Assembly (NCBI GenBank): GCA_016196885.1
Contig: JACPWU010000022.1
Span: 1-32,000, forward strand
Direction: 5' to 3'
DNA length: 32,000 nucleotides
Source: Chlamydiota bacterium
Lineage (GTDB): Bacteria; Auribacterota; JACPWU01
A program made the position numbers and the translations under genes. The notes beneath the pieces were generated by a model. The model was not told the origin of the DNA, ran no database searches, and saw nothing but the letters and a program-made list of their open reading frames with translations. Shown here piece by piece: positions 1 to 29,104 of the stretch (positions are counted from its first letter, which is position 1; every line of letters begins with the position of its first letter).

Positions 1-3000
1 CAAAAGCCCTCATCACAGGAGATAAGGATTTACTGACGTTAAAAGTCTTTGAAGACATTCCGATACTCACAGCTCGCCAATTCCTCACTTGGCTCGAAAT
101 TCTGTAACTCTTTAACAACACGCCCACCTCTCCCAAAGCAATCAAACCCACCAGCCAGAAAATAAAATGAGGCGCTCCTAGCGCCACTAAAACCCCCGAT
201 ATAAAAAATGCCGCTGCAATCGCACTTTGAGGAGAGACAGAAAAAACAATCAGCGCCAAAAACAATTCAAACCCATAGGGAATTTTGAAAACCCAAATCA
301 TCACAAGCGACAGGGTCAACAAAGCCGCCTCCGTACGGAACGAACCTTCCATCTCAGCCAGCGGCTTGCGTATACGAAATCTTCGTTTTTCGACCGGTCT
401 ACTTCCCTTTGGCAAGCCTCGCATGACGATCGGGCCATCGCCAACCTTTTCTTCAGAAACCCTAGGCGGATGTAGGGAAGTCGCTAAAGCCTGTACAGCC
501 TCACCCGTCCTTTGTTCAATTTCTCGAGTGCTTAAAGAAGGATGTTCTTGCAACCGATCCACCTCTGGAAAAAAGAGGATAAATTTCGTCCCTTCCCCTT
601 CAACAGAATGGACTGACACCTCTCCTCCCATCACATCCACCATCGCCTTCAAGACCGCAAGGCCAACTCCCGTTCCGTCAATACCCTGTGTATTGCTTGC
701 CCGATGCCCCATTTCAAAAATTTTCACCCTATCTGCTTCAGGAATCCCAATTCCCTCATCTTCAACTTCAATCACAACATTCTTATCAACACGCTTCAAC
801 CTCACGAAAACTTTCTTTCCTTTTCTCCGGGATTGAAAACCATAAGAATATTTGATCGCATTTTGAATCAAATCCAACATCGAAGTGATAAAAACATTCT
901 CATCACACTCTGCAACCCACAGGGGCTCATCAGGAATTTCTGCAATCAGTTCTATCTCGGACTCTCTTGCCTCTCTTGCACAACTCTCCACAACCACCTT
1001 CATCAGAGGCTGAATATTTCTCGGCTCATAATGTTCACCGATCCTCATCATTTCAAGATAGGCCTCCAGTTTCGCCAAGGCCCGTTCCATCCCTTCCCTG
1101 AAAAACGCCGCCTCGTTAACACGGACTGGACTTTCACCCTCAAAAGATTCCAACCACTCACCCAAGCGAGGCGCGATCCGTTTTCCGAAATCCTGAACCC
1201 CTCCGTTATGCCACAACCTATAAACCAGCAATCCAAAATCATAATAGGCATGCTCCATTAAATAAGGGAATCCAGCCACGATGGCATTTTGCCCTGAATA
1301 TCCCTTCCAAAAATCGCTTAAATCCTCCCCTCGCACATGGCCTTCCAAAGAACCCTCTTTGCGCTCGGCTTCTGGAGAACGAGCCACAACAATCTCTAAT
1401 ATATCCCGATGAGGAACTCCCTCCAGACTGTATTGAACCTGCACATTTTTTTTCACAAATGAAGCAATCCTGTCTTCCAAGCCAAGTCCCCTGGAAATGG
1501 AAAATCTTAAAAGATCCTCTAATTCGAATCCATACCTCCTGTAATACTTCACAGTCCCCATTCCAAAGGTGTAGGCCATCCAAACTCTGTCTGCACGAAA
1601 TCTTTGAGCTAGATCCGCCAAGAAAAGATCTTCCGCATCTTTTAAGCTTCCCCCACCCAAACCTACCCGGACAGAGAACTGCCTCATCTCATCCTCCATC
1701 CTTTTAAGTTCCTCAGCCATTCGCTTGAGCCTCGCCTTATCCCACTGACCGCTTTCCAAAGAATGCACTAAAAAATCACGCAGCCCTTTTAATTTCTGAT
1801 CATAAAGTTCCGCCTGTTGATGAAGGGCATGCTGGGCCTCTTCAAGCGTGAGCTCGCGTAATGGAGATTTGGACAAACGACGATAGACTTGCAAGAGTGA
1901 CTGATCCGATCTCCAAAAGTCACGCTCCCCCTCCCGACCTGGAAACATCACACGAAACTCCCCTTCCAAACCCAGCTCCCTCCAAATATCAAAAAATCTG
2001 GAATGGCGATACCTCATCACCTCATAAAGATTGAGCCTTTCCTTTCTGTGAACCTTGGCTCTCACCTGCCTTAAACGAGGCGTTTGATTCAGAGGCTGAC
2101 GGACTTGTTCCAAATCTTCTTCTAAACTTCTCCCTACACCTCCCGTCATCACTCGAATCAATCGCAGTAATTCTTGTGGAGACTGATCAAGTCCCCCTTG
2201 GGCTTGGGCCAAAGTTAATTCTTTCTCATAAGTCTCCTGATCCACAAAATACTCTTCAATGTCTTGAACCTTCTTCTCTCCCAACATTTTCTCAGCCACG
2301 GAAACCCGAAGAATCAAACCTACGGTAGGATGGCCATCCACAAAAATAGACATGAACACTCTTTCCTCTGAACGATACGTCTCATGAACTTCGACCTGAT
2401 GCTCCACCCCATTCGAGGACTGAGCCTCTAAAACATTTTTGACCCTGTACTGAATCAGTTCTTGATATTTTGTCAACCACTCCCAGAGCAATTGACCCTG
2501 AGCATTCACCAACGGCCAATCGCGATTCCACTCCACTTGTTGCCACAACTTCAGAACGCCTAAAACACTTAAAATGACTTGCGTCTTCTCACGAAGTGTT
2601 TGAAGAGAGCCCCGGTCCCCCGCCGCTTCAACTCGAGCCGCAGGAGAGGCTGGCACCTGTCCAGAGAGAACCGCGTCAATAGGTTGCGGGCCCGAATTCA
2701 TCGGCTCCACGGCCAATGTGGATTTCTCTTTTTGACCCACTTGCTTAATCATTTTTTCCAAAGGCGTTTGCTCATCTTTCATGATGGAAACATAAGGCGT
2801 CTTCAATTTGAAATGGGTCATGCGAGGCGCTACCACCACATAAGAAAGCCCTTTTTCCTCCAGCCTCTTCGTCAGGCCCTCCGTGTGAAAACCTCCTGCA
2901 TAAAGAATGGCAATGGGACTCTTTTCTTCTTCCATCTTGGCCAGCGTATTTTCTACCAAATCTTTTTCACGGACGTCGGCGTAGCGGTAAAATTGCTCGA

Positions 3001-4660
3001 GATCTTTTAGATGAGAGTCAAGAAAGGCAATGTCGTTATTTGTAACCCCTCCATCTCCCCTCAACGAAGTAGCCCCCTGGGGTAAACTAAGGGGAGAGTT
3101 CTCCGCCATCTTCTGCTTTTCCTCCCCTCTTAAGATAAGAGGGGACCGAGGGGAGTTATCCTGACCCTGGACCCATGACCTTGGACCCTGTATTTTTTTC
3201 AATCCTTCCACAATCTCCTTCGCTGAAACCCCTTTTTTATTCTCCGTAAAATAACGAAGCTCCCCTTTCTTAAGTTCCATCAGAAAAAAATTCTTTAAAA
3301 TCGTAAAATCTTCTTCAATCCTCTTTAAATCTTTTTCCTCTGGAGTCTTCATTATTTCATTTTGGAGAGAATCTCGAAGGGCTTCGCACTCTTTGAGCAA
3401 TTCGTCACTGTTGATTTGATGATAGAGTTCGGTCATTTGAATGTATTGCATCAAATTCGCGTACTTCGAATTCAGTGCATCGGACTTCGTACTTCGTACT
3501 TCGACGTCCGCTGTTCGAAGTTCGATGTCCGATGTACGGTCTTTGAGGTTCGATGTACGATGTACGATGTACGATGTGCTATCTTTTTCAATAAGCTTTT
3601 TTAGATATTCGTAATACTCCCACGCCTCGATCTTCTCGAGTCGGTAATACAAACTCTTGGCCATGAGTTCGACCCCTTCTTCTTTGACGAGTTTGCAGCT
3701 TAAATCTTCTAAAAGTTTGACTCTTTCTTTTTCGACTTGCTTCAGATCTATTCTGTTCTCTAGCTTCTTCATCTGAAGCATCAGATTGATATTGGGGTAG
3801 ATGGAGGAGGAAAGAATGTTGGATGTTGAAAGTTGGATGTTGGAAGATGACGAGGAGTTTTTATCTTTTTCTTTCAACTTTGAACTTTGAACTTTTAACT
3901 GTTCTATATATTCTCCCAACTCCATCTCCCCCTTTTCATAGCGTGTCGCCTGATCCAAAAACTCCTTCACTTCTTTGGAATAAACCTTTTCTCTTAAGTG
4001 AAGAATGACTTTTTCAATCCTGTCCAAAATCGGCAGAGCCTTTTCTTTCACATCCATACCTTGTTTCCATCCCACCACATGCTCAAAATAATGAGCCATA
4101 TTTTCAACGCCTATTAAGGGAAGAGGTTTGTCTTTTACTATGGAGAGATATTCCGCCCCGGAAATTTTTCCTTGTTTCATGAGATAGCCGGCCATCATTT
4201 TTCGAAGGGTCGGATCCGGAAACGCTGTAAAAAAAGAAGTATCCACATCCCCCTGAGCTCCCTCCAAACCAATCATTTTCAAACCATGCGCCCCATGCTC
4301 TTGAAAAAGCTCGTTCATCATCTTGGCTGAATTAGATTGCGCCTCAAAATGGCAATGCACATCCTGAATATGGATGATCATTTTCTGGTCTTGACCCTGA
4401 TGGCTCTGGAGGATGTCACCCCATTTGGAAGGAATAGAAATATTTAAAGGATTGTTGGAGGTTGGATGTTGGATGTTGGATGAAACGACAACCGGTTGAG
4501 CTCTTCCCTCCAACTTCAAACTTCCAGCCTCTATCCCTCTTTCCTGCGCAAGTAGCTCTCCTTCAAATAGATTCGTAAATGAAAATGCCAGAAATGTGAG
4601 GAAAGAAACAAGCCTTAAGCCCAAATTTCTGTTTTTTTCACCCCAATTAAAAAGAGACAT
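1..4660 (-). CDS. Giant multidomain protein truncated at its 3' end by the window edge (>=1553 aa). Signal-like N-terminus, tentative split Tiki/TraB/ChaN-like motifs, long helical middle, then a C-terminal GHKL/HATPase_c domain followed by hydrophobic helices.
   Basis: Manual translation of the minus strand from ATG 4660-4658 gives 1553 codons plus 1 nt with no stop down to position 1. GGGAG lies 12 nt upstream and an in-frame TGA 19 codons upstream. No sub-fragment of this frame appears in the ORF track, consistent with an edge-truncated ORF being omitted. N-terminus is MSLFNWGEKNRNLGLRLVSFLTFLAFSFTNLFEGELLAQE. HATPase boxes near 560-960: LIQNAIKYS (N), DEGIGIP (G1), GTGVGLAV (G2). Hydrophobic helices fall near 100-330. 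Confidence 0.8.
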   Translation of the reverse strand, partial: MSLFNWGEKNRNLGLRLVSFLTFLAFSFTNLFEGELLAQERGIEAGSLKLEGRAQPVVVSSNIQHPTSNNPLNISIPSKWGDILQSHQGQDQKMIIHIQDVHCHFEAQSNSAKMMNELFQEHGAHGLKMIGLEGAQGDVDTSFFTAFPDPTLRKMMAGYLMKQGKISGAEYLSIVKDKPLPLIGVENMAHYFEHVVGWKQGMDVKEKALPILDRIEKVILHLREKVYSKEVKEFLDQATRYEKGEMELGEYIEQLKVQSSKLKEKDKNSSSSSNIQLSTSNILSSSIYPNINLMLQMKKLENRIDLKQVEKERVKLLEDLSCKLVKEEGVELMAKSLYYRLEKIEAWEYYEYLKKLIEKDSTSYIVHRTSNLKDRTSDIELRTADVEVRSTKSDALNSKYANLMQYIQMTELYHQINSDELLKECEALRDSLQNEIMKTPEEKDLKRIEEDFTILKNFFLMELKKGELRYFTENKKGVSAKEIVEGLKKIQGPRSWVQGQDNSPRSPLILRGEEKQKMAENSPLSLPQGATSLRGDGGVTNNDIAFLDSHLKDLEQFYRYADVREKDLVENTLAKMEEEKSPIAILYAGGFHTEGLTKRLEEKGLSYVVVAPRMTHFKLKTPYVSIMKDEQTPLEKMIKQVGQKEKSTLAVEPMNSGPQPIDAVLSGQVPASPAARVEAAGDRGSLQTLREKTQVILSVLGVLKLWQQVEWNRDWPLVNAQGQLLWEWLTKYQELIQYRVKNVLEAQSSNGVEHQVEVHETYRSEERVFMSIFVDGHPTVGLILRVSVAEKMLGEKKVQDIEEYFVDQETYEKELTLAQAQGGLDQSPQELLRLIRVMTGGVGRSLEEDLEQVRQPLNQTPRLRQVRAKVHRKERLNLYEVMRYRHSRFFDIWRELGLEGEFRVMFPGREGERDFWRSDQSLLQVYRRLSKSPLRELTLEEAQHALHQQAELYDQKLKGLRDFLVHSLESGQWDKARLKRMAEELKRMEDEMRQFSVRVGLGGGSLKDAEDLFLADLAQRFRADRVWMAYTFGMGTVKYYRRYGFELEDLLRFSISRGLGLEDRIASFVKKNVQVQYSLEGVPHRDILEIVVARSPEAERKEGSLEGHVRGEDLSDFWKGYSGQNAIVAGFPYLMEHAYYDFGLLVYRLWHNGGVQDFGKRIAPRLGEWLESFEGESPVRVNEAAFFREGMERALAKLEAYLEMMRIGEHYEPRNIQPLMKVVVESCAREARESEIELIAEIPDEPLWVAECDENVFITSMLDLIQNAIKYSYGFQSRRKGKKVFVRLKRVDKNVVIEVEDEGIGIPEADRVKIFEMGHRASNTQGIDGTGVGLAVLKAMVDVMGGEVSVHSVEGEGTKFILFFPEVDRLQEHPSLSTREIEQRTGEAVQALATSLHPPRVSEEKVGDGPIVMRGLPKGSRPVEKRRFRIRKPLAEMEGSFRTEAALLTLSLVMIWVFKIPYGFELFLALIVFSVSPQSAIAAAFFISGVLVALGAPHFIFWLVGLIALGEVGVLLKSYRISSQVRNWRAVSIGMSSKTFNVSKSLSPVMRAF
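3042..3159. repeat. GGGGAG-type element, copy embedded in frame in the giant ORF
   Basis: Carries the same five sequence blocks in the same order as 14817-14912. It is translated as ...SPRSPLILRGEEKQKMAENSPLSLPQGATSLRGDGGVT... Confidence 0.8.
3161..3188. repeat. Heptad array inside the giant ORF
   Basis: CTGACCC TGGACCC ATGACCT TGGACCC. The units are related to the TGGACCA/TGGACTA units at 12867-12887. Confidence 0.8.
3484..3578. repeat. Heptad arrays inside the giant ORF, forming an imperfect inverted pair
   Basis: ACTTCGT x2 plus ACTTCGA (3484-3504), CGATGTC CGATGTA (3523-3536), and CGATGTA x3 plus CGATGTG (3551-3578). Translated as STSYIVHRTSNLKDRTSDIELRTADVEVRSTKS. Confidence 0.85.
3818..3895. 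repeat. Heptad arrays inside the giant ORF
   Basis: GTTGGAT GTTGAAA GTTGGAT GTTGGAA (3818-3845) and CAACTTT GAACTTT GAACTTT (3875-3895). Confidence 0.85.
4454..4481. repeat. Heptad array inside the giant ORF
   Basis: GTTGGAG GTTGGAT GTTGGAT GTTGGAT, the same unit as at 3818-3845. Translated as SSNIQHPTSNN. Confidence 0.85.
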
Positions 4661-6624: not shown

Positions 6625-6680
6625 TCGTTGCTCGTTGCTCGTTGTTCGTCGTTCGTCGCTCGTATCTCGTTATTCGTCAA
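6625..6680. repeat. Heptad array (8 units) abutting the glmS start codon
   Basis: CTCGTTG x3, TTCGTCG x2, CTCGTAT, CTCGTTA, TTCGTCA, all in constant 7-nt phase. The array ends 3 nt from ATG 6621. Confidence 0.9.
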
Positions 6681-6697
6681 TAATGAATTCATTAATT

Positions 6698-6831
6698 TCA
6701 ATGATCATTCGAGATCATCGTGTGCGATGAAAGTTCTTCCCATCATGCTTTTTTTGTAGTCGCCCGATTCATCGGGCAGCCCATGCAAGGGGCACACGGC
6801 AGCCCCATAAATGGGGCGACTACAAAATGAG
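6698..6831. repeat. REP-like composite element, copy 1 (left module, GTAG...CTAC core with a 23-nt insertion, AAAATGAG flank)
   Basis: The core at 6756-6823 reads GTAGTCGCCCGATTCATCGGGCAGCC[CATGCAAGGGGCACACGGCAGCC]CCATAAATGGGGCGACTAC. The left module 6698-6755 is near-identical to 11580-11637. Confidence 0.85.
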
Positions 6832-6861
6832 CCCGACTTTCATAGCAATAATTTGCCTTTT

Positions 6862-6903
6862 CGACGAAAGGCGAACAACGAAAAACTAACGACGATATAC
6901 GAT
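6862..6903. repeat. Complementary-type heptad array (6 units) overlapping the nagA stop
   Basis: CGACGAA AGGCGAA CAACGAA AAACTAA CGACGAT ATACGAT. It is inverted relative to 6625-6680, so the two arrays bracket REP-like copy 1. It also encodes the last nagA residues (..IVYRR). Confidence 0.75.
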
Positions 6904-9801: not shown

Positions 9802-10277
9802 AAACCTGGAATATTATTTGGATTAAAACAACCTCCGCTTCCTGGATCCGAGCTCGCACCTGATCCTTCGATTGAAGACCCGCCAGAGGATGATTCAGGA
9901 ACAAGATCGCTCTCCTCAACAGAAGGGGACGACTCCGCCTCATCCGAAACCGCAGGCGAAACTTTATCCCTGAGAACCTCCTCGCCTAAAAACGTTTGGG
10001 CCTCTTCTACTTCCTGATCATAAGGAGGAAGTCCCATCAAAAGCTGAGGAGGAATCATCTCCCATCGATAAAGCCTTACTTTTTCAATTCTCCACGGACG
10101 GTTTAATAAATTTAATTCCTCTTCGATCTTTTGATCCGACAAATAAGAGGGAGAATCTGCAGTCACACCCTTGCCCAATACACTTAAAAAAAGAGCAACC
10201 CAAAAGGTGATTCGAGAATTAAAGATCCCAATAGAATGAAAGCCCATAAATATTCCTCTCATATTCGGCAAAATCAT
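9792..10277 (-). CDS. Small secreted hypothetical protein. The start is uncertain, possibly ATG 10247.
   Basis: Hydrophobic signal-like segment RITFWVALFLSVLGKGVTA, an acidic/Ser-rich C-terminal half, and a terminal CFNPNNIPGFCD with two Cys. Overlaps the upstream gene's 3' end and the downstream gene's 5' end. Confidence 0.5.
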   Translation of the reverse strand: MILPNMRGIFMGFHSIGIFNSRITFWVALFLSVLGKGVTADSPSYLSDQKIEEELNLLNRPWRIEKVRLYRWEMIPPQLLMGLPPYDQEVEEAQTFLGEEVLRDKVSPAVSDEAESSPSVEESDLVPESSSGGSSIEGSGASSDPGSGGCFNPNNIPGFCD

Positions 10278-11565
10278 AATTAGAACTTGTCGTCACATAA
10301 GTATAACTCAATTCTACCTTCGCCTTCTCGTTCCAAAAATTTCGAGAGAGTCCACCCCCACACGTATAGACATCGTCCAATCTCTCTGGATCCGGCGTAA
10401 ACTCTACATAATCTTCACTCTGGTATTCCACTCGACTGAAAAGCCGAAGCTTCCAAGGAAGCGCAAGAGAAATAAAACCGCTGATTCGATGGCTCTCCAG
10501 ACGAAAGACATTTCCCTCCACGTCATTCCACTCAAAAAAATATCCAGGTCCTAAAACCAATCTGTTTTGGAACAAATAAAAACACTGCTGAGCGCCCACC
10601 TCATAACTCAAGCCATCTCTTGAAAAACGTTCTGGAAAATCCGTATCCGTTTCGAAATTTTTTTCATGTATGCTGATCTTAGGTCTGAAAACAGCCTGAT
10701 CCAACCATTGAAAATCGAGTCCTGTAGAAGCTTCATATTCTTCGCTGAAATCCTCCCCTCCCAAACGGATAAAATGATAATTTCCCTGCAAAAAAGCCTG
10801 ATAAGGGAAATCACCCCACCTGCCCTTGCGCTGTAAAAAAAGCCTTGGAGAATGACTCATGACGTCAAAATCTTCCAGGGTCTCTTCCTCATGAAAACTC
10901 TCATAAAAGGTGTAACCTCCTCCCCAGGTAAAAGGCTTTCGACCCTCCTTTTGCTCCCAGATTCGAAGTTCTATATCCGCGGAGGCAATCAAGCGATAAG
11001 ACTCTGTGGCGTCATCTCCTTCTACGTGGCGAGAACGTCCCCTCACATTGTCGTCATACTCCCCTGATAAACGGAGTAAAAAATTCCAGCGCCGATCTTT
11101 TTTGCGCACCCCCTCCACTTGCCGAAGACGTTCCAAAACAGGCAAAACTTCCCTGGCCCTTTGTGCGTAGAGCGAATCCGGAGCCCTCTTTTGAATGTCA
11201 GTTAAAAGACGAATGGACTCTGATAAGTCCCCTCGATAAGCGAGCGCCTGAGCCAAGTGATAACGGCAAGAAAAACTTTCAGGTTCAATTTTTAAGGCCT
11301 CTCGAAAAAGAAGAATGGCCTCATCTTCTTTGTTCAACTCTACAAGGCATATCCCTTTCATTCGCAGAAGAAAAGGATCTTGGGGACTTTTTTCAAGAAG
11401 CTTGTGAATCACTTCAAGGGCAGGGGCATATTCTTTTCTTTTGATCAAATAGGCTGCACTGTCCCAACCCTCAGTGTCCTGGAGAGCTGCAAGCCAACCC
11501 TGAGAGGTTAAAAGAAAAAAAACAAAAAAGAGACGGATCCTTTTTAACAATTTATTCATTTTCAT
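10219..11565 (-). CDS. Outer-membrane protein with an N-terminal TPR domain and a C-terminal predicted beta-barrel (Slam/DUF560-like or small polysaccharide-porin-like architecture)
   Basis: The track ORF runs to 11628, but its first 21 codons (MMGRTFIAYDDLERSLRLAKR) translate the REP-like element. The likely start is MKMNKLLKRIRLFFVFFLLTSQGWLAA (ATG 11565 or 11559). TPR-like helices span about residues 50-170. After that comes alternating beta-strand-like sequence beginning RRWNFLLRLSGEYDDNV and ending YGLSFYWDL. Confidence 0.72.
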   Translation of the reverse strand: MKMNKLLKRIRLFFVFFLLTSQGWLAALQDTEGWDSAAYLIKRKEYAPALEVIHKLLEKSPQDPFLLRMKGICLVELNKEDEAILLFREALKIEPESFSCRYHLAQALAYRGDLSESIRLLTDIQKRAPDSLYAQRAREVLPVLERLRQVEGVRKKDRRWNFLLRLSGEYDDNVRGRSRHVEGDDATESYRLIASADIELRIWEQKEGRKPFTWGGGYTFYESFHEEETLEDFDVMSHSPRLFLQRKGRWGDFPYQAFLQGNYHFIRLGGEDFSEEYEASTGLDFQWLDQAVFRPKISIHEKNFETDTDFPERFSRDGLSYEVGAQQCFYLFQNRLVLGPGYFFEWNDVEGNVFRLESHRISGFISLALPWKLRLFSRVEYQSEDYVEFTPDPERLDDVYTCGGGLSRNFWNEKAKVELSYTYVTTSSNYDFAEYERNIYGLSFYWDL

Positions 11566-11579
11566 TCTCTTGGCTAATC

Positions 11580-11690
11580 TCAATGATCTTTCGAGATCAT
11601 CGTATGCGATGAAAGTTCTCCCCATCATGCTTTTTTCGTAGTCGCCCCATTTATGGGGCTGCCCGATGAATCGGGCGACTACAAAATGAG
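11580..11690. repeat. REP-like composite element, copy 2 (same flanks as copy 1, core in the opposite orientation)
   Basis: The core at 11638-11682 reads GTAGTCGCCCCATTTATGGGGCTGCCCGATGAATCGGGCGACTAC. This is the exact reverse complement of the 22547-22591 core. Confidence 0.85.
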
Positions 11691-11691
11691 A

Positions 11692-12822
11692 TTACAAAAT
11701 TTTGTCCTTCAACTCGCAAAGCCGAGCATGCTCATTCAAAGCAAAGCGATCCGTCATCCCCGCAATGTAATCGCAGACCACTTGCTGAAGTTGAGCCCCT
11801 TTAAGTTTAGCTTGCGTTGTCTCCTTTAAAAGATGGGGACTTGCTTTATAAAGCTTAAAAAGATCACATACTACCTGCAAAGCCTGGTCATTCATTTTTT
11901 GCACTTGGGGATGGTTGTAAAGATTTTTAAAAAGGAAACTCCTGAGGGCCTGAACAAGACTTCGCACTTCTGGACTAAAATCCACCACTCTTTGTCGAAC
12001 CTCCTTTAATTGATCTAGATTTTGAATTTTATTCTGAGCGATCAAATGATCCGTATATTTTACCAAATCTGTGACCATGGTATTGATCATGTTACGAACG
12101 GTGTAATAGCAGCGAATCTCTGACGAAACCGACGCATGACCCTTGCGAATCGCCTCAAAGGCGTGATGCCAAAGCTCCACTTGGGCCAAATCCTTTTCAC
12201 TTAAGAGCCCTGAAGCCAAGCCATCGTCCACATCATGGCAAAGATAGGCAATGTCATCCGAGAGGTCGGCCACTTGGGCCTCAAGACTGGAAGTATTCGC
12301 GGCTTCCCCCGGCCGATGTTTCTGAATTCCCTCCCGAACCTCCCAAGTCAAATTGAGCCCCTCAAATTGGGGATAGCGCCTTTCTAATTTTTCAATCATT
12401 CTAAGCGACTGATGATTGTGTTCGAAACCCCCTGCCTCCTGCATCATCAAATCTAAAGCCTTCTCCCCGCTGTGCCCAAAAGGAGGATGCCCCACATCAT
12501 GTGCCAAGGCAATCGCCTCCGTCAAATCTTCATTCAGCGAAAGCGCCCTGGCAATGTTGCGTCCGATTTGAGCAACCTCCATGGTATGCGTGAGACGCGT
12601 GCGGTAATGATCCCCTTCGTGGTTCACAAACACCTGCGTCTTATATTCCAACCGGCGAAAAGCCCGCGAATGCACAATGCGGTCACGATCCCTTTGAAAA
12701 GCCGTGCGCACCGGATGTTCCTCTTCTGGATAAAGACGTCCCTTCGTCTGGCCACTTTTGCGCGCATAAGGGGCCAAAATTTTTTCTTCAATTTCTTCGT
12801 ACCCTTGACGTGTCATCAACAT
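11692..12822 (-). CDS. dgt: dGTPase-like HD-domain triphosphohydrolase
   Basis: Motifs RTAFQRDRDRIVHSRAFRRLEYKTQVF and HDVGHPPFGH. The track start 12963 reads through the heptad hairpin. The likely start is ATG 12822 or 12816 (MLMTRQGYEEIEEKILAPYA). Confidence 0.88.
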   Translation of the reverse strand: MLMTRQGYEEIEEKILAPYARKSGQTKGRLYPEEEHPVRTAFQRDRDRIVHSRAFRRLEYKTQVFVNHEGDHYRTRLTHTMEVAQIGRNIARALSLNEDLTEAIALAHDVGHPPFGHSGEKALDLMMQEAGGFEHNHQSLRMIEKLERRYPQFEGLNLTWEVREGIQKHRPGEAANTSSLEAQVADLSDDIAYLCHDVDDGLASGLLSEKDLAQVELWHHAFEAIRKGHASVSSEIRCYYTVRNMINTMVTDLVKYTDHLIAQNKIQNLDQLKEVRQRVVDFSPEVRSLVQALRSFLFKNLYNHPQVQKMNDQALQVVCDLFKLYKASPHLLKETTQAKLKGAQLQQVVCDYIAGMTDRFALNEHARLCELKDKIL

Positions 12823-12824
12823 AA

Positions 12825-12887
12825 GTCCATAGTCCATGGTCCATAGTCGACAGTCCACAGTTTTAATGGACCATGGACTATGGACTG
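12825..12887. repeat. Heptad-array hairpin between der and the dGTPase-like gene
   Basis: GTCCATA GTCCATG GTCCATA GTCGACA GTCCACA, then the loop GTTTTAA, then TGGACCA TGGACTA TGGACTG. The der stop codon lies inside the right arm. Confidence 0.9.
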
Positions 12888-22470: not shown

Positions 22471-22546
22471 TTTTTACTCGTCGTTAGCCCGCATTTCATC
22501 TGAAAATAGTCTTTAGTTATTCTTATACAATAAGTTATGATGACTT

Positions 22547-22591
22547 GTAGTCGCCCGATTCATCGGGCAGCCCCATAAATGGGGCGACTAC
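22547..22591. repeat. REP-like core, copy 3 (core only)
   Basis: GTAGTCGCCCGATTCATCGGGCAGCCCCATAAATGGGGCGACTAC. The outer 9-10 bp stem encloses two 5-bp hairpins. Confidence 0.85.
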
Positions 22592-22697
22592 AAGGGTGAT
22601 TTTCATCCCCCTTTGTGACTGAAAGGATCCCCGATAAAAACACTCGGGGATGACAAGCTGTAGGCATTTTGAGCTCGTGATGAGAAATGCGGTTTAG

Positions 22698-23699: not shown

Positions 23700-24182
23700 A
23701 TGGACCCCATTTTAGAAATTTTAGAGAAAGACGCTCGGCTCAAGCCAGAAGAAATCGCCAAAATGGTCAAAAGAAATGTAGTCGAGATTAAAAAACTCAT
23801 CCAAAAATATGAGAAGGAACGGGTGATTTTACGCTACAAAACCGTTCTGAATAAAGAGCTTTTAAGAAATTCCAGCGAGGTGAGGGCCTTGATCGAAGTC
23901 AAGGTCACCCCCCAAAGAGACGTTGGCTTTGATGCCATTGCCACGCGTATTTATCAATTTCCGGAGGTGAGAAGCTGCTACCTCATGTCCGGCGGCTACG
24001 ATCTTCTCGTCACAGTCGAAGGGAAAGACCTTCAATCGGTAGCCTCCTTTGTTTCTGAAAAATTGTCCACCCTGGAGAATGTGCATGGAACGGTCACCCA
24101 TTTTCTCTTAAAAAAATACAAAGAGGACGGAGACATTCTGCGCTCACGGGAAGAAGATAAACGGATTGCCATTTCATTTTAG
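23700..24182 (+). CDS. Lrp/AsnC-family transcriptional regulator
   Basis: 160 aa with an N-terminal wHTH (ILEILEKDARLKPEEIAKMV) and a C-terminal RAM/AsnC_trans_reg-like domain. AAGGA lies upstream of the ATG. Confidence 0.87.
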   Translation: MDPILEILEKDARLKPEEIAKMVKRNVVEIKKLIQKYEKERVILRYKTVLNKELLRNSSEVRALIEVKVTPQRDVGFDAIATRIYQFPEVRSCYLMSGGYDLLVTVEGKDLQSVASFVSEKLSTLENVHGTVTHFLLKKYKEDGDILRSREEDKRIAISF

Positions 24183-24260
24183 CGTACAGCGTACAGCGTA
24201 TAGCGTTTAGCGTACAGGAAAAACAAAACTTCTTTTTGCTGTACGCTATCTGCTAAACGC
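24181..24260. repeat. Heptad-array hairpin between the Lrp-family gene and the aminotransferase gene
   Basis: AGCGTAC x2, AGCGTAT, AGCGTTT, AGCGTAC (24181-24215), a loop, then GCTGTAC GCTATCT GCTAAAC (24238-24258). The arms pair as 8 bp plus 9 bp with a bulge. Confidence 0.88.
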
Positions 24261-28685: not shown

Positions 28686-28690
28686 TTTTT

Positions 28691-28732
28691 CGTCGTTCGT
28701 TGTTCGTCGTTGGTCGTTCGTATTTCGTAGAT
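28691..28732. repeat. Heptad array (6 units) in the 5' leader just upstream of the CobS-like ATG
   Basis: CGTCGTT CGTTGTT CGTCGTT GGTCGTT CGTATTT CGTAGAT. The array is separated from ATG 28685 by A5 on the coding strand. Confidence 0.9.
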
Positions 28733-28931: not shown

Positions 28932-29104
28932 CACCCAGGTCTTCTGGCTCCCCAGCCCTTTTGACTGCCTTCCCAATCCAACCCAATGTCAGACCAGTGG
29001 CTCCTTCTTCGTCAAAAGGTTCCTTTCTCTTTCGAGAAAGGACTAGGTTACAGCGGCGGGGCCGCTCCGGATTCTAACCGGATTCCCTTAGAGTAAACGC
29101 GACC
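28932..29104 (-). promoter_or_regulatory. Cobalamin (B12) riboswitch aptamer
   Basis: Minus-strand sequence contains CUCUAAGGGAAUCCGGUUAGAAUCCGGAGCGGCCCCGCCGCUGUAACC, GAGCCACUGG, GGGAAGGCAGUCA and GCCAGAAGACCUGGGUG (B12 box). These blocks align with the E. coli btuB leader as I recall it. Confidence 0.9.

Follow-up and report, generated by a model that had tools for sequence, protein, structure and literature searches.

How did a short hairpin-forming core come to lie in opposite orientations beside one and the same flanking module? The question is raised by a 32,000-nt window, i.e., the whole stretch of DNA analysed here (positions 1-32000 of contig C33), from the genome of an uncultured groundwater bacterium (G000; a 2.23-Mb assembly of 66 contigs, 94% complete). 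Three copies of a core with a GTAG head and a CTAC tail were found in this window (Table 1), and the core of copy 2 is flipped relative to the left module that it shares with copy 1, as had been claimed in a preliminary description made from the window alone. The core is a doublet of two GTAG-tagged repetitive extragenic palindrome (REP) hairpins, A and B, arranged head-to-head, i.e., a REP doublet forming a hairpin (REPIN). By its anatomy the element belongs to the GTAG-REP/REPIN class with a REP-associated tyrosine transposase (RAYT) of the TnpA-REP type, and its assignment to the REPIN/RAYT-type family is made with high confidence. The flip of the core reflects a rare rearrangement and does not point to a new invertible switch. 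When the REPIN identity and an exchange between related composite elements are weighed together, they form the best overall explanation, which we consider rather probable.

A doublet of two REP types and its transposase

Direct reading of the window confirmed all three cores. Copy 3 is the 45-mer itself (GTAGTCGCCCGATTCATCGGGCAGCCCCATAAATGGGGCGACTAC), copy 2 is its exact reverse complement, and copy 1 is a 68-nt form (GTAGTCGCCCGATTCATCGGGCAGCC-CATGCAAGGGGCACACGGCAGCC-CCATAAATGGGGCGACTAC) with the same ends as the 45-mer and 23 extra central bases. Since the 45-mer differs from its own reverse complement at 7 of 45 positions, point mutation cannot have made the flip. Besides, the observation is not due to chance, as the genome contains 23 + 28 exact 45-mers, 157 GTAG...CTAC elements and approximately 47 left modules. 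Further copies are thus present in the genome.

Hairpin A (GTAGTCGCCCGATTCATCGGGC) and hairpin B (GTAGTCGCCCCATTTATGGGGC) were shown to be one compensated stem pair apart. In the corresponding REP units, (TT)GTAGTCGCCC-GATTYATC-GGGC for REP-A and (TT)GTAGTCGCCC-CATTYATG-GGGC for REP-B, the stems are GCCCGA/TCGGGC and GCCCCA/TGGGGC, respectively, and the sole diagnostic difference is found at stem positions 11 and 18: in 147–148 of 148 copies these positions carry G/C in REP-A but C/G in REP-B. Both REP types are preceded by TT, with a T at position -1 in 146 of the 148 B sides. The spacer between the REPs ranges from 3 to approximately 30 nt, with classes of 3 nt (the 45-mer), 11–15 nt and 20–30 nt. 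The preliminary description had taken the extra bases of copy 1 for an internal insertion duplicating GGCAGCC. The 23 nt are not private to copy 1, however, but belong as spacer to an entire 68-nt subfamily (consensus CAATCCATGCAAGGGGCACACGGCAG), whereas the duplication is indeed specific to copy 1, a one-off in which two private substitutions compared to the 68-nt consensus create the GGCAGCC repeat. The three-way junction proposed earlier was likewise recovered in part: single-stranded DNA of the 45-mer is predicted to fold into a Y shape (-15.6 kcal/mol, z -5.7), whereas a single long imperfect hairpin is the best predicted fold of the 56- and 68-nt forms (-19.6 kcal/mol for copy 1).

A search of G000 for REP units with the pattern GTAGTCGCCC-N8-GGGC, in which two units with their GTAG heads outside were counted as a doublet, detected 336 units, comprising 151 doublets and 34 unpaired units that were mostly doublets with one arm interrupted or mutated. 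All but three doublets were A/B heterodimers (148/151). On the plus strand, 75 of these read A>B (REP-A, spacer, inverted REP-B) and the other 73 read B>A. GTAG was invariant in the 296 units of the 148 heterodimers, partly by construction because the search pattern required GTAG; independently of the pattern, all 47 left modules found by BLAST abut an intact GTAG REP unit. According to rough, ORF-based gene calls, 129 of the 151 doublets are located in intergenic gaps (94 co-directional, 20 convergent and 15 divergent), 3 inside open reading frames (ORFs) and 19 at contig edges. Among relatives the distribution of REP units was patchy, with 362 in G000, 114 in G001 (same family, sister genus), 11 in G027 and none in G002 and G003. 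A search of the elements against Rfam gave nothing at the gathering score, and at E <= 1 a single chance match to a miRNA (20 bits compared to a cut-off of 74).

The GTAG head and CTAC tail had been read as a hallmark of REPs mobilised by RAYT enzymes, and this reading was borne out in related genomes. In G001, a 159-aa Y1 gene between trpA and trpB (locus L013 on contig C13) has REP doublets of the same family on both sides, and a second REP-flanked RAYT, 83% identical to the first, was found on contig JACPXZ010000027.1 (locus L040) from another groundwater organism. The presence of these two genes shows that the family has a cognate RAYT, and the REPIN family is served by a small RAYT, a TnpA-REP-like Y1 HUH transposase. 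The G001 protein contains the HxH and Y motifs; its best family match is the NCBIfam 'REP-associated tyrosine transposase' (NF047646; 74.6 bits, cut-off 80 bits), and its best structure match is E. coli TnpA-REP (4er8_A; 1.2e-6), ahead of IS200-type enzymes. Judging from these two similarities, the enzyme may bind single-stranded REP DNA and cleave it at CT/CA next to the hairpin. Among 12 Y1 loci in three genomes, L013 is the one that adjoins these REPs. An in-frame REP-like sequence, GCCCGATAAATYGGGCGAC, encoding ...QFIGQL..., was observed inside both RAYT genes (L013 1729-1755; L040 2058-2080).

In G000, trpB and trpA are adjacent, and a tblastn search of the 94% complete assembly with the G001 RAYT gave no homologue (best E 0.1); the cognate RAYT of G000 is either unassembled or lost. 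The genome does contain one PF01797/Y1_Tnp gene (C7:8341-9490; L001 784-1950), predicted to encode a RAYT-like protein of 333 aa with a DnaA_C-like C-terminal helix-turn-helix that scores 79.2 bits against the 80-bit cut-off of NF047646. A 27-bp inverted repeat (GGGGACGGAGTTAACTTATTAACTTAA) that is unique in the genome encloses this gene, no GTAGTCGCC REP lies within 1.5 kb of it, and G001 contains four similar genes. A role as mobiliser is unsupported, as neither this gene nor its homologues in G001 and G027 are flanked by these REPs. The contig carrying L040 was also considered as the missing RAYT piece of G000 and rejected, since its neighbour genes are only approximately 32% identical to their G000 paralogues.

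Shell families and the flipped copy

Larger palindromic shells, nested one inside the other, carry approximately 89% of the REPINs at their apex; they form a mosaic resembling bacterial interspersed mosaic elements (BIMEs) and divide into at least five families. When REPINs were grouped by their flank pairs, 28 fell into I-left/I-right, 27 into family II, 21 into family III and 8 into family V, and 17 of the 148 had unique flanks on both sides. Family I, which includes copies 1 and 2, is organized as AATTTCAATGATCTTTCGAGATCATCGTGTGCGATGAAAG-TTCTCCCCATCATGCTTTTTTT-(A>B)-A(A/G)AATGAGCYTC-ACTTTCATAGCAA and is represented by 28 full copies and approximately 47 left modules (84–100% identity) in the genome. 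The whole element is predicted to fold (z -5.4) into a 5′ hairpin and a long stem that contains the REPIN, and TGCGATGAAAGT pairs with positions 6836-6847 (ACTTTCATAGCA) as an internal complementarity of 12 nt. Copy 3 lies in another shell family, family II, and families III and IV have MITE-like (miniature inverted-repeat transposable element-like) terminal repeats of the GGCATATGCACTTGA type. Family V has the same outer shell as family I (5′ module ATGACCC-TTTT-GGGGTCAT, 3′ end ...CTTTCATAACAA) with other inner linkers; the outer 5′ module is present in 10 of 12 copies and the 3′ module in 6 of 12. In family V (10 of 12 copies) and in a short variant (three copies) the REPIN is B>A. Thus, both orientations are common when read against the outer shell, and each subfamily has a fixed one.

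The inner shell modules were shown to be approximately 97% side-specific. On the left, modules were located beside the A and B sides, respectively, 45 and 2 times for family I, 27 and 0 for family II, 14 and 1 for family V, and 9 and 1 for family IV; the corresponding numbers on the right were 0 and 25 for family I, 0 and 39 for family II, 0 and 10 for family V, and 2 and 3 for family IV. Only about 6 of approximately 175 module junctions (approximately 3%) were discordant, copy 2 among them, and no REP-free inner module end was found among the approximately 175. The same pattern was seen next to I-left in G001 (approximately 12 A>B, one B>A). Each shell family has one inherited REPIN orientation. 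The variants of the left shell show a weak association with those of the right shell (Mantel r 0.32, p 0.03).

Nucleotide diversity (pi) is much lower in the REP arms than in the surrounding shells: in family I it is 0.000–0.007 in the arms vs. 0.089–0.091 in the shells, and in family II 0.007–0.024 in the arms vs. 0.118 in the left shell. Five of six syntenic family I sites in G001 are empty in G000, which indicates that the composites have moved since the two lineages split. A metagenome scan with the REPIN yielded five contigs, all with other flanks, and a scan for the junction between I-left and the REP gave zero matches. In co-directional gaps, 25 family I composites run counter to transcription and 3 run with it (binomial p 3e-5), which could reflect either an insertion strand bias or selection; this orientation bias could not be separated from strand effects, as the local GC skew used to look for a bias of the replication strand is itself confounded with gene strand.

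In G001, a single gene lies in a 1-kb segment between two inverted copies of only the initial 40 nt of the left module (C29:28032-29116; L029 457-1541); judging from its translation, it resembles a gene of the chlorite-dismutase/HemQ type. The outer 5′ hairpin module can thus occur without a REPIN. The left module was also considered as an insertion-sequence end and rejected, as the insert between these inverted copies is an ordinary gene and no transposase.

At the flipped locus, the shared left module described earlier was confirmed, with 94.7% identity over 57 nt between copy 1 (6698-6754) and copy 2 (11580-11636). The right flank AAAATGAG also follows the core in both copies, but its leading As are generic, since TT precedes the REPs, and only TGAG is specific. 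TTTTTTC forms the end of the left shell at copy 2, and no other B-side junction has a C at position -1; CTCATTTT beside the A side is unique to copy 2. Directly after AAAATGAG follows the stop codon of a dGTPase-like gene (11692-11694, minus strand). The Logan assembly of run SRR12113387 contains a contig (SRR12113387_2023432) that ends in ...CTCATTTTGTAGTCGCCCGATTCATCGGGC, so that hairpin A is on the side of the dGTPase gene in this independent assembly as well. In G001, G002 and G003, no element was found after the dGTPase gene and the neighbouring genes are different, so that an orthologous comparison is uninformative on the flip.

All three flipped copies with I-left (copy 2, C34:27923 and one in G001, L020) are without a full I-right, compared to 17 of 45 unflipped copies; this is only suggestive with regard to the mechanism. 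The hybrid at C34:27923 consists of I-left, a B>A REPIN, and the inner and outer 3′ modules of family V, and the hybrid at C64:29869 has I-left followed by A>B and the same family V inner module, i.e., the same flanks with the opposite core. Further hybrids combine II-left with I-right (two copies), I-left with II-right (three copies) and V-left with I-right (one copy). Hybrids of family I with family V and of family I with family II have their breakpoints at the REP arms. In two family IV copies (C35:28641 and C38:13066), both long flanks are swapped relative to the core, and the spacer is co-oriented with A>B.

When the left module of family I is read on the minus strand, it gives ATGATGGGGAGAACTTTCATCGCA... 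(MMGRTFIA(H/Y)DDLE). At copy 2 this reading is in frame with a downstream tetratricopeptide repeat (TPR) gene and adds a spurious N-terminal MMGRTFIAYDDLE... to ORF 10219-11628; the false extension comprises 23 codons (11559-11628, minus strand), and the start in the public record is at 11559. These elements are relevant for annotation, as they break assemblies and create false N-terminal extensions.

Possible origins of the flip

For copy 2, we tentatively prefer an exchange at the REP arms between sister composites, as far as this can be judged from the DNA itself. Such an exchange is favoured by hybrids that break at the REP arms and by the existence of composites carrying the REPIN in opposite orientations. 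Shell and REPIN would have been amplified as units after a few founding events, which may have placed the REPIN in either orientation (A>B in family I, B>A in family V and the short variant). The flip of copy 2 would then be a rare secondary exchange rather than a switch, namely a recombination or conversion patch in which the partner of the family I element was a sister composite with the opposite REPIN in the same outer shell. The end-points of the exchange would lie in the arms common to both REPs (TT-GTAGTCGCCC), such that the family I left shell was retained and only 8 nt of the right shell were left.

Several observations weigh against this exchange. Copy 2 keeps AAAATGAG, which is explained more simply by an in-place inversion than by a single crossover; a single crossover with family V would leave ACAAGCTT, and one with the short variant AAAAAGAA. 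The exchange requires a two-ended conversion patch and a separate truncation of the right shell. The family IV copies C35:28641 and C38:13066 look like whole-core flips, and the C at position -1 of copy 2 is explained by no model. No target site duplication (TSD) or terminal inverted repeats were detected for the shells of families I, II and V, 28 full copies aligned with their flanks having been inspected for family I, and the difference in pi between arms and shells is not predicted by simple co-amplification. Exchange, in-place inversion and a RAYT-catalysed cut-and-join appear not to be separable from the sequence.

An in-place inversion, which appears unlikely but still merits attention, would turn 25 nt between the terminal inverted repeats of the REPIN (TTGTAGTCGCCC / GGGCGACTACAA; 12–14 bp), either by intramolecular recombination or by replication template switching in a hairpin or cruciform. 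An analogous case is known from plastid spacers, in which hairpin loops undergo 'flip-flop' inversion. It would account for copy 2 having shell on both sides of its core (the I-left module and AAAATGAG) and for the two family IV copies with both flanks swapped and a spacer co-oriented with A>B, and the 45-mer is predicted to fold stably on itself. However, only 8 nt of right shell are present at copy 2, four of them generic, the foreign right flanks of C34:27923 and of the G001 copy in L020 are not predicted by an inversion, and discordance is rare (approximately 6/175 junctions), so that flipping, if it occurs at all, would be slow.

A RAYT-catalysed event seems distinctly unlikely. The transposase would cut single-stranded DNA beside the REPs at CT/CA, followed by re-insertion at the same site from the other strand or by strand transfer to a new flank; since both strands of a head-to-head doublet show the same 5′ GTAG-hairpin, either orientation would be possible. 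TnpA-REP has been reported to cleave at CT 5′ or 3′ of a REP and to perform strand transfer in vitro (PMC8266576), a cognate RAYT is present in relatives, the homology between copy 2 and the right shell stops at a bottom-strand CT (AATC|TCATTTTGTAG), and the hybrid breakpoints lie at REP boundaries. These breakpoints are explained equally well by homologous exchange, however, and the G000 assembly contains no cognate RAYT, although at 94% completeness the gene could be unassembled. Besides, an empty inner shell was never found, so that excision would have to be traceless, and the T-tracts remain with the shell rather than travel with the core.

A further and quite improbable possibility is that the REPIN core acts as an exchangeable, actively homogenised cassette, with a RAYT-type enzyme, unassembled or acting in trans, exchanging strands site-specifically between REP ends. 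This reading is based on arms that are at least 10 times more uniform than the shells (pi 0–0.7% vs. approximately 9–12%) and on core variants and orientations shuffled among shell families exactly at REP boundaries, in a genome whose assembly is without a cognate RAYT. If correct, it would imply that a RAYT overwrites cores and sometimes flips them, an exchange/inversion activity not described for TnpA-REP.

The preliminary description had also proposed that the core inserts independently and in either orientation into a preferred target, here pre-existing shells. The shells are approximately 9% diverged compared to less than 1% for the REP arms, spacer variants of 45, 62, 68 and 72 nt share one shell family, and both orientations occur at the family level relative to the outer shell, all of which would fit. 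However, the strict orientation of the inner modules (45 to 2, 27 to 0, 39 to 0 and 25 to 0) and the lack of any REP-free inner module (0 of approximately 175) argue against such insertion, and Di Nocera et al. also report no REP-free target palindromes (PMC3733652). We therefore regard it as very improbable.

A misassembly of the near-palindromic repeat in this metagenome-assembled genome is scarcely credible and was rejected on the basis of the independent Logan contig and the discordant copies elsewhere: the 45-nt exact repeat has 51 copies and Logan contigs do break there, but the junction k-mers are orientation-specific (7/45 differences), the separate SRR12113387 assembly has the same A-side junction, and discordant copies were found at further loci of G000 and also in G001, which was assembled independently. 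Core and flanks are nearly always co-oriented, a pattern from which the preliminary description would have concluded that copy 2 is an artefact, yet copy 2 is not one.

Related systems and neighbouring elements

The attributes expected of REPs and REPINs, i.e., a 5′ GTAG with a palindrome, a high and mostly extragenic copy number and an inverted doublet as the unit, were all found here, and a REP-flanked RAYT was found in two related assemblies (G001:C13/L013 and L040) but not in the 94% complete G000. A close likeness is to the GTAG-REP head-head heterodimers described by Di Nocera, De Gregorio and Rocco (2013; PMC3733652). These also begin with GTAG at the 5′ end of a short GC-rich palindrome, are paired with GTAG facing outwards, consist of partners with different stems at variable distance, and are located mostly between co-directional or convergent genes. 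Their occurrence within longer palindromes, and the lack of REP-free targets, are likewise already described there. In contrast, the host is here an uncultured groundwater bacterium and nearly all dimers lie in several distinct repeated shells. The likeness of the GTAGTCGCCC... sequence family to the 24 families of that paper is one of anatomy.

As in the REPINs and RAYTs of Pseudomonas fluorescens SBW25 (Bertels and Rainey, 2011; PMC3116915, PMC3337134), two inverted REPs and a spacer replicate as a unit, the REP arms are conserved and the spacers variable, A/T runs are found beside the doublet, and the RAYT is single-copy and REP-flanked (here in G001 and L040). Unlike in SBW25, the commonest doublet is 45 nt with a 3-nt spacer, the G000 assembly has no cognate RAYT and the doublet is rarely solo (17/148). 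With the BIMEs and TnpA-REP/REPtrons of E. coli (Nunvar, 2010, PMC2817692; Corneloup, 2021, PMC8266576; 4er8) the family shares a fixed-orientation REP mosaic with conserved extra-REP motifs and a Y1 HUH enzyme, the G001 protein matching 4er8_A with its HxH and Y motifs. However, the shells are here long nested palindromes of 60–150 nt, some of them (III and IV) MITE-like, tandem REP/iREP arrays are absent, and the family is known from sequence, whereas TnpA-REP has been characterized biochemically. Family I is not a MITE with terminal inverted repeats and a TSD, as it has no TSD and its only terminal complementarity is the internal 12-nt TGCGATGAAAGT / ACTTTCATAGCA.

New in the present data are the side-specificity counts, families I and V sharing an outer shell with opposite REPINs, the hybrid breakpoints, and the difference in conservation between core and shell. 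Well-preserved REPIN/RAYT systems are thereby extended to uncultured groundwater bacteria. The 148 heterodimers, five shell families and countable hybrids provide a natural data set on the embedding, copying and recombination of REP doublets, and the core/shell difference together with the strict A/B heterodimer rule offers testable clues to requirements of the transposase or the host.

Table 1. Location of the REPINs, their shells and the heptad arrays in the window
Feature	Position	Strand	Basis
Left heptad array, CTCGTTG-type units; arm of imperfect long hairpin bracketing copy 1	6625-6680	+	TRF period 7, 6.9 copies
Family I left shell, copy 1: outer 5′ hairpin module AATT-TCAATGATC..GATCATCGTGTGCGATGAAAG, inner linker TTCTTCCCATCATGCTTTTTTT	6694-6755	+	Approximately 47 genome copies
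REPIN copy 1, 68-nt form, A>B (REP-A, 26-nt spacer, inverted REP-B)	6756-6823	+	Sequence
Family I right shell (AAAATGAGCCCGACTTTCATAGCAA)	6824-6848	+	25-31 copies, always B side
Right heptad array, inverted partner of 6625-6680	6862-6903	+	Pairing, TRF
Family I left shell, copy 2	11576-11637	+	57 nt 100% identical to C29:64233-64289
REPIN copy 2, 45-nt form, B>A, flipped relative to family I left shell	11638-11682	+	Sequence; A-side junction in Logan contig SRR12113387_2023432
AAAATGAG, probable 8-nt remnant of family I right shell	11683-11690	+	Sequence
Family II left shell (GAAAATAGTCTTTAGTTATTCTTATACAATAAGTTATGATGACTT)	22502-22546	+	27 copies, all A side
REPIN copy 3, 45-nt form, A>B	22547-22591	+	Sequence
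Family II right shell (AAGGGTGATTTTCATCCCCCTTTGTGACTGAAAG)	22592-22625	+	39 copies, all B side

The inverted heptad arrays noticed earlier around copy 1 do pair, with arms of 34 nt (6625-6658 / 6862-6895) that are 79% complementary. Inverted arrays of 7-nt units of varied sequence are common in intergenic gaps with or without a REPIN, and heptad arrays were located at 12824-12886, 24181-24217, 28689-28721 and 6624-6678/6862-6895 and at L001 2790-2880. In an orthologous gap (G000 C27:4857-5026 vs. G001 L025) the heptads differ, which indicates that the arrays turn over fast. Period-7 arrays are also found at 3460-3577, 3816-3900 and 4453-4482 inside a long open frame of 1553 codons (2-4660) that is read on the minus strand and runs off the edge of the window.

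Two further elements were found inserted in REP hairpin loops. The first, of approximately 110 nt with the ends CCCCCCACC...GGTGGGGGG, is inserted in the loop of REP-A in G000 (C61:40194-40350, C2:51, C63:2936 and C38:10017) and in G001 (L018, L021, L024, L028 and L033), and appears to target REPs. IS1397 is a REP-targeting insertion sequence. ISPpu9 has been described as another one (PMC8450116). The second element, of approximately 114 nt (CTAAGGAGGCCATATTCC...), is located at a TA in the loop of REP-B in G000 (C52:28995-29153, where it gives a 159-nt 'core', C62:86862, C61:28391 and C41:151). Elsewhere in the window, a cobalamin riboswitch (RF00174) was detected at 28937-29088 on the minus strand (65.9 bits).

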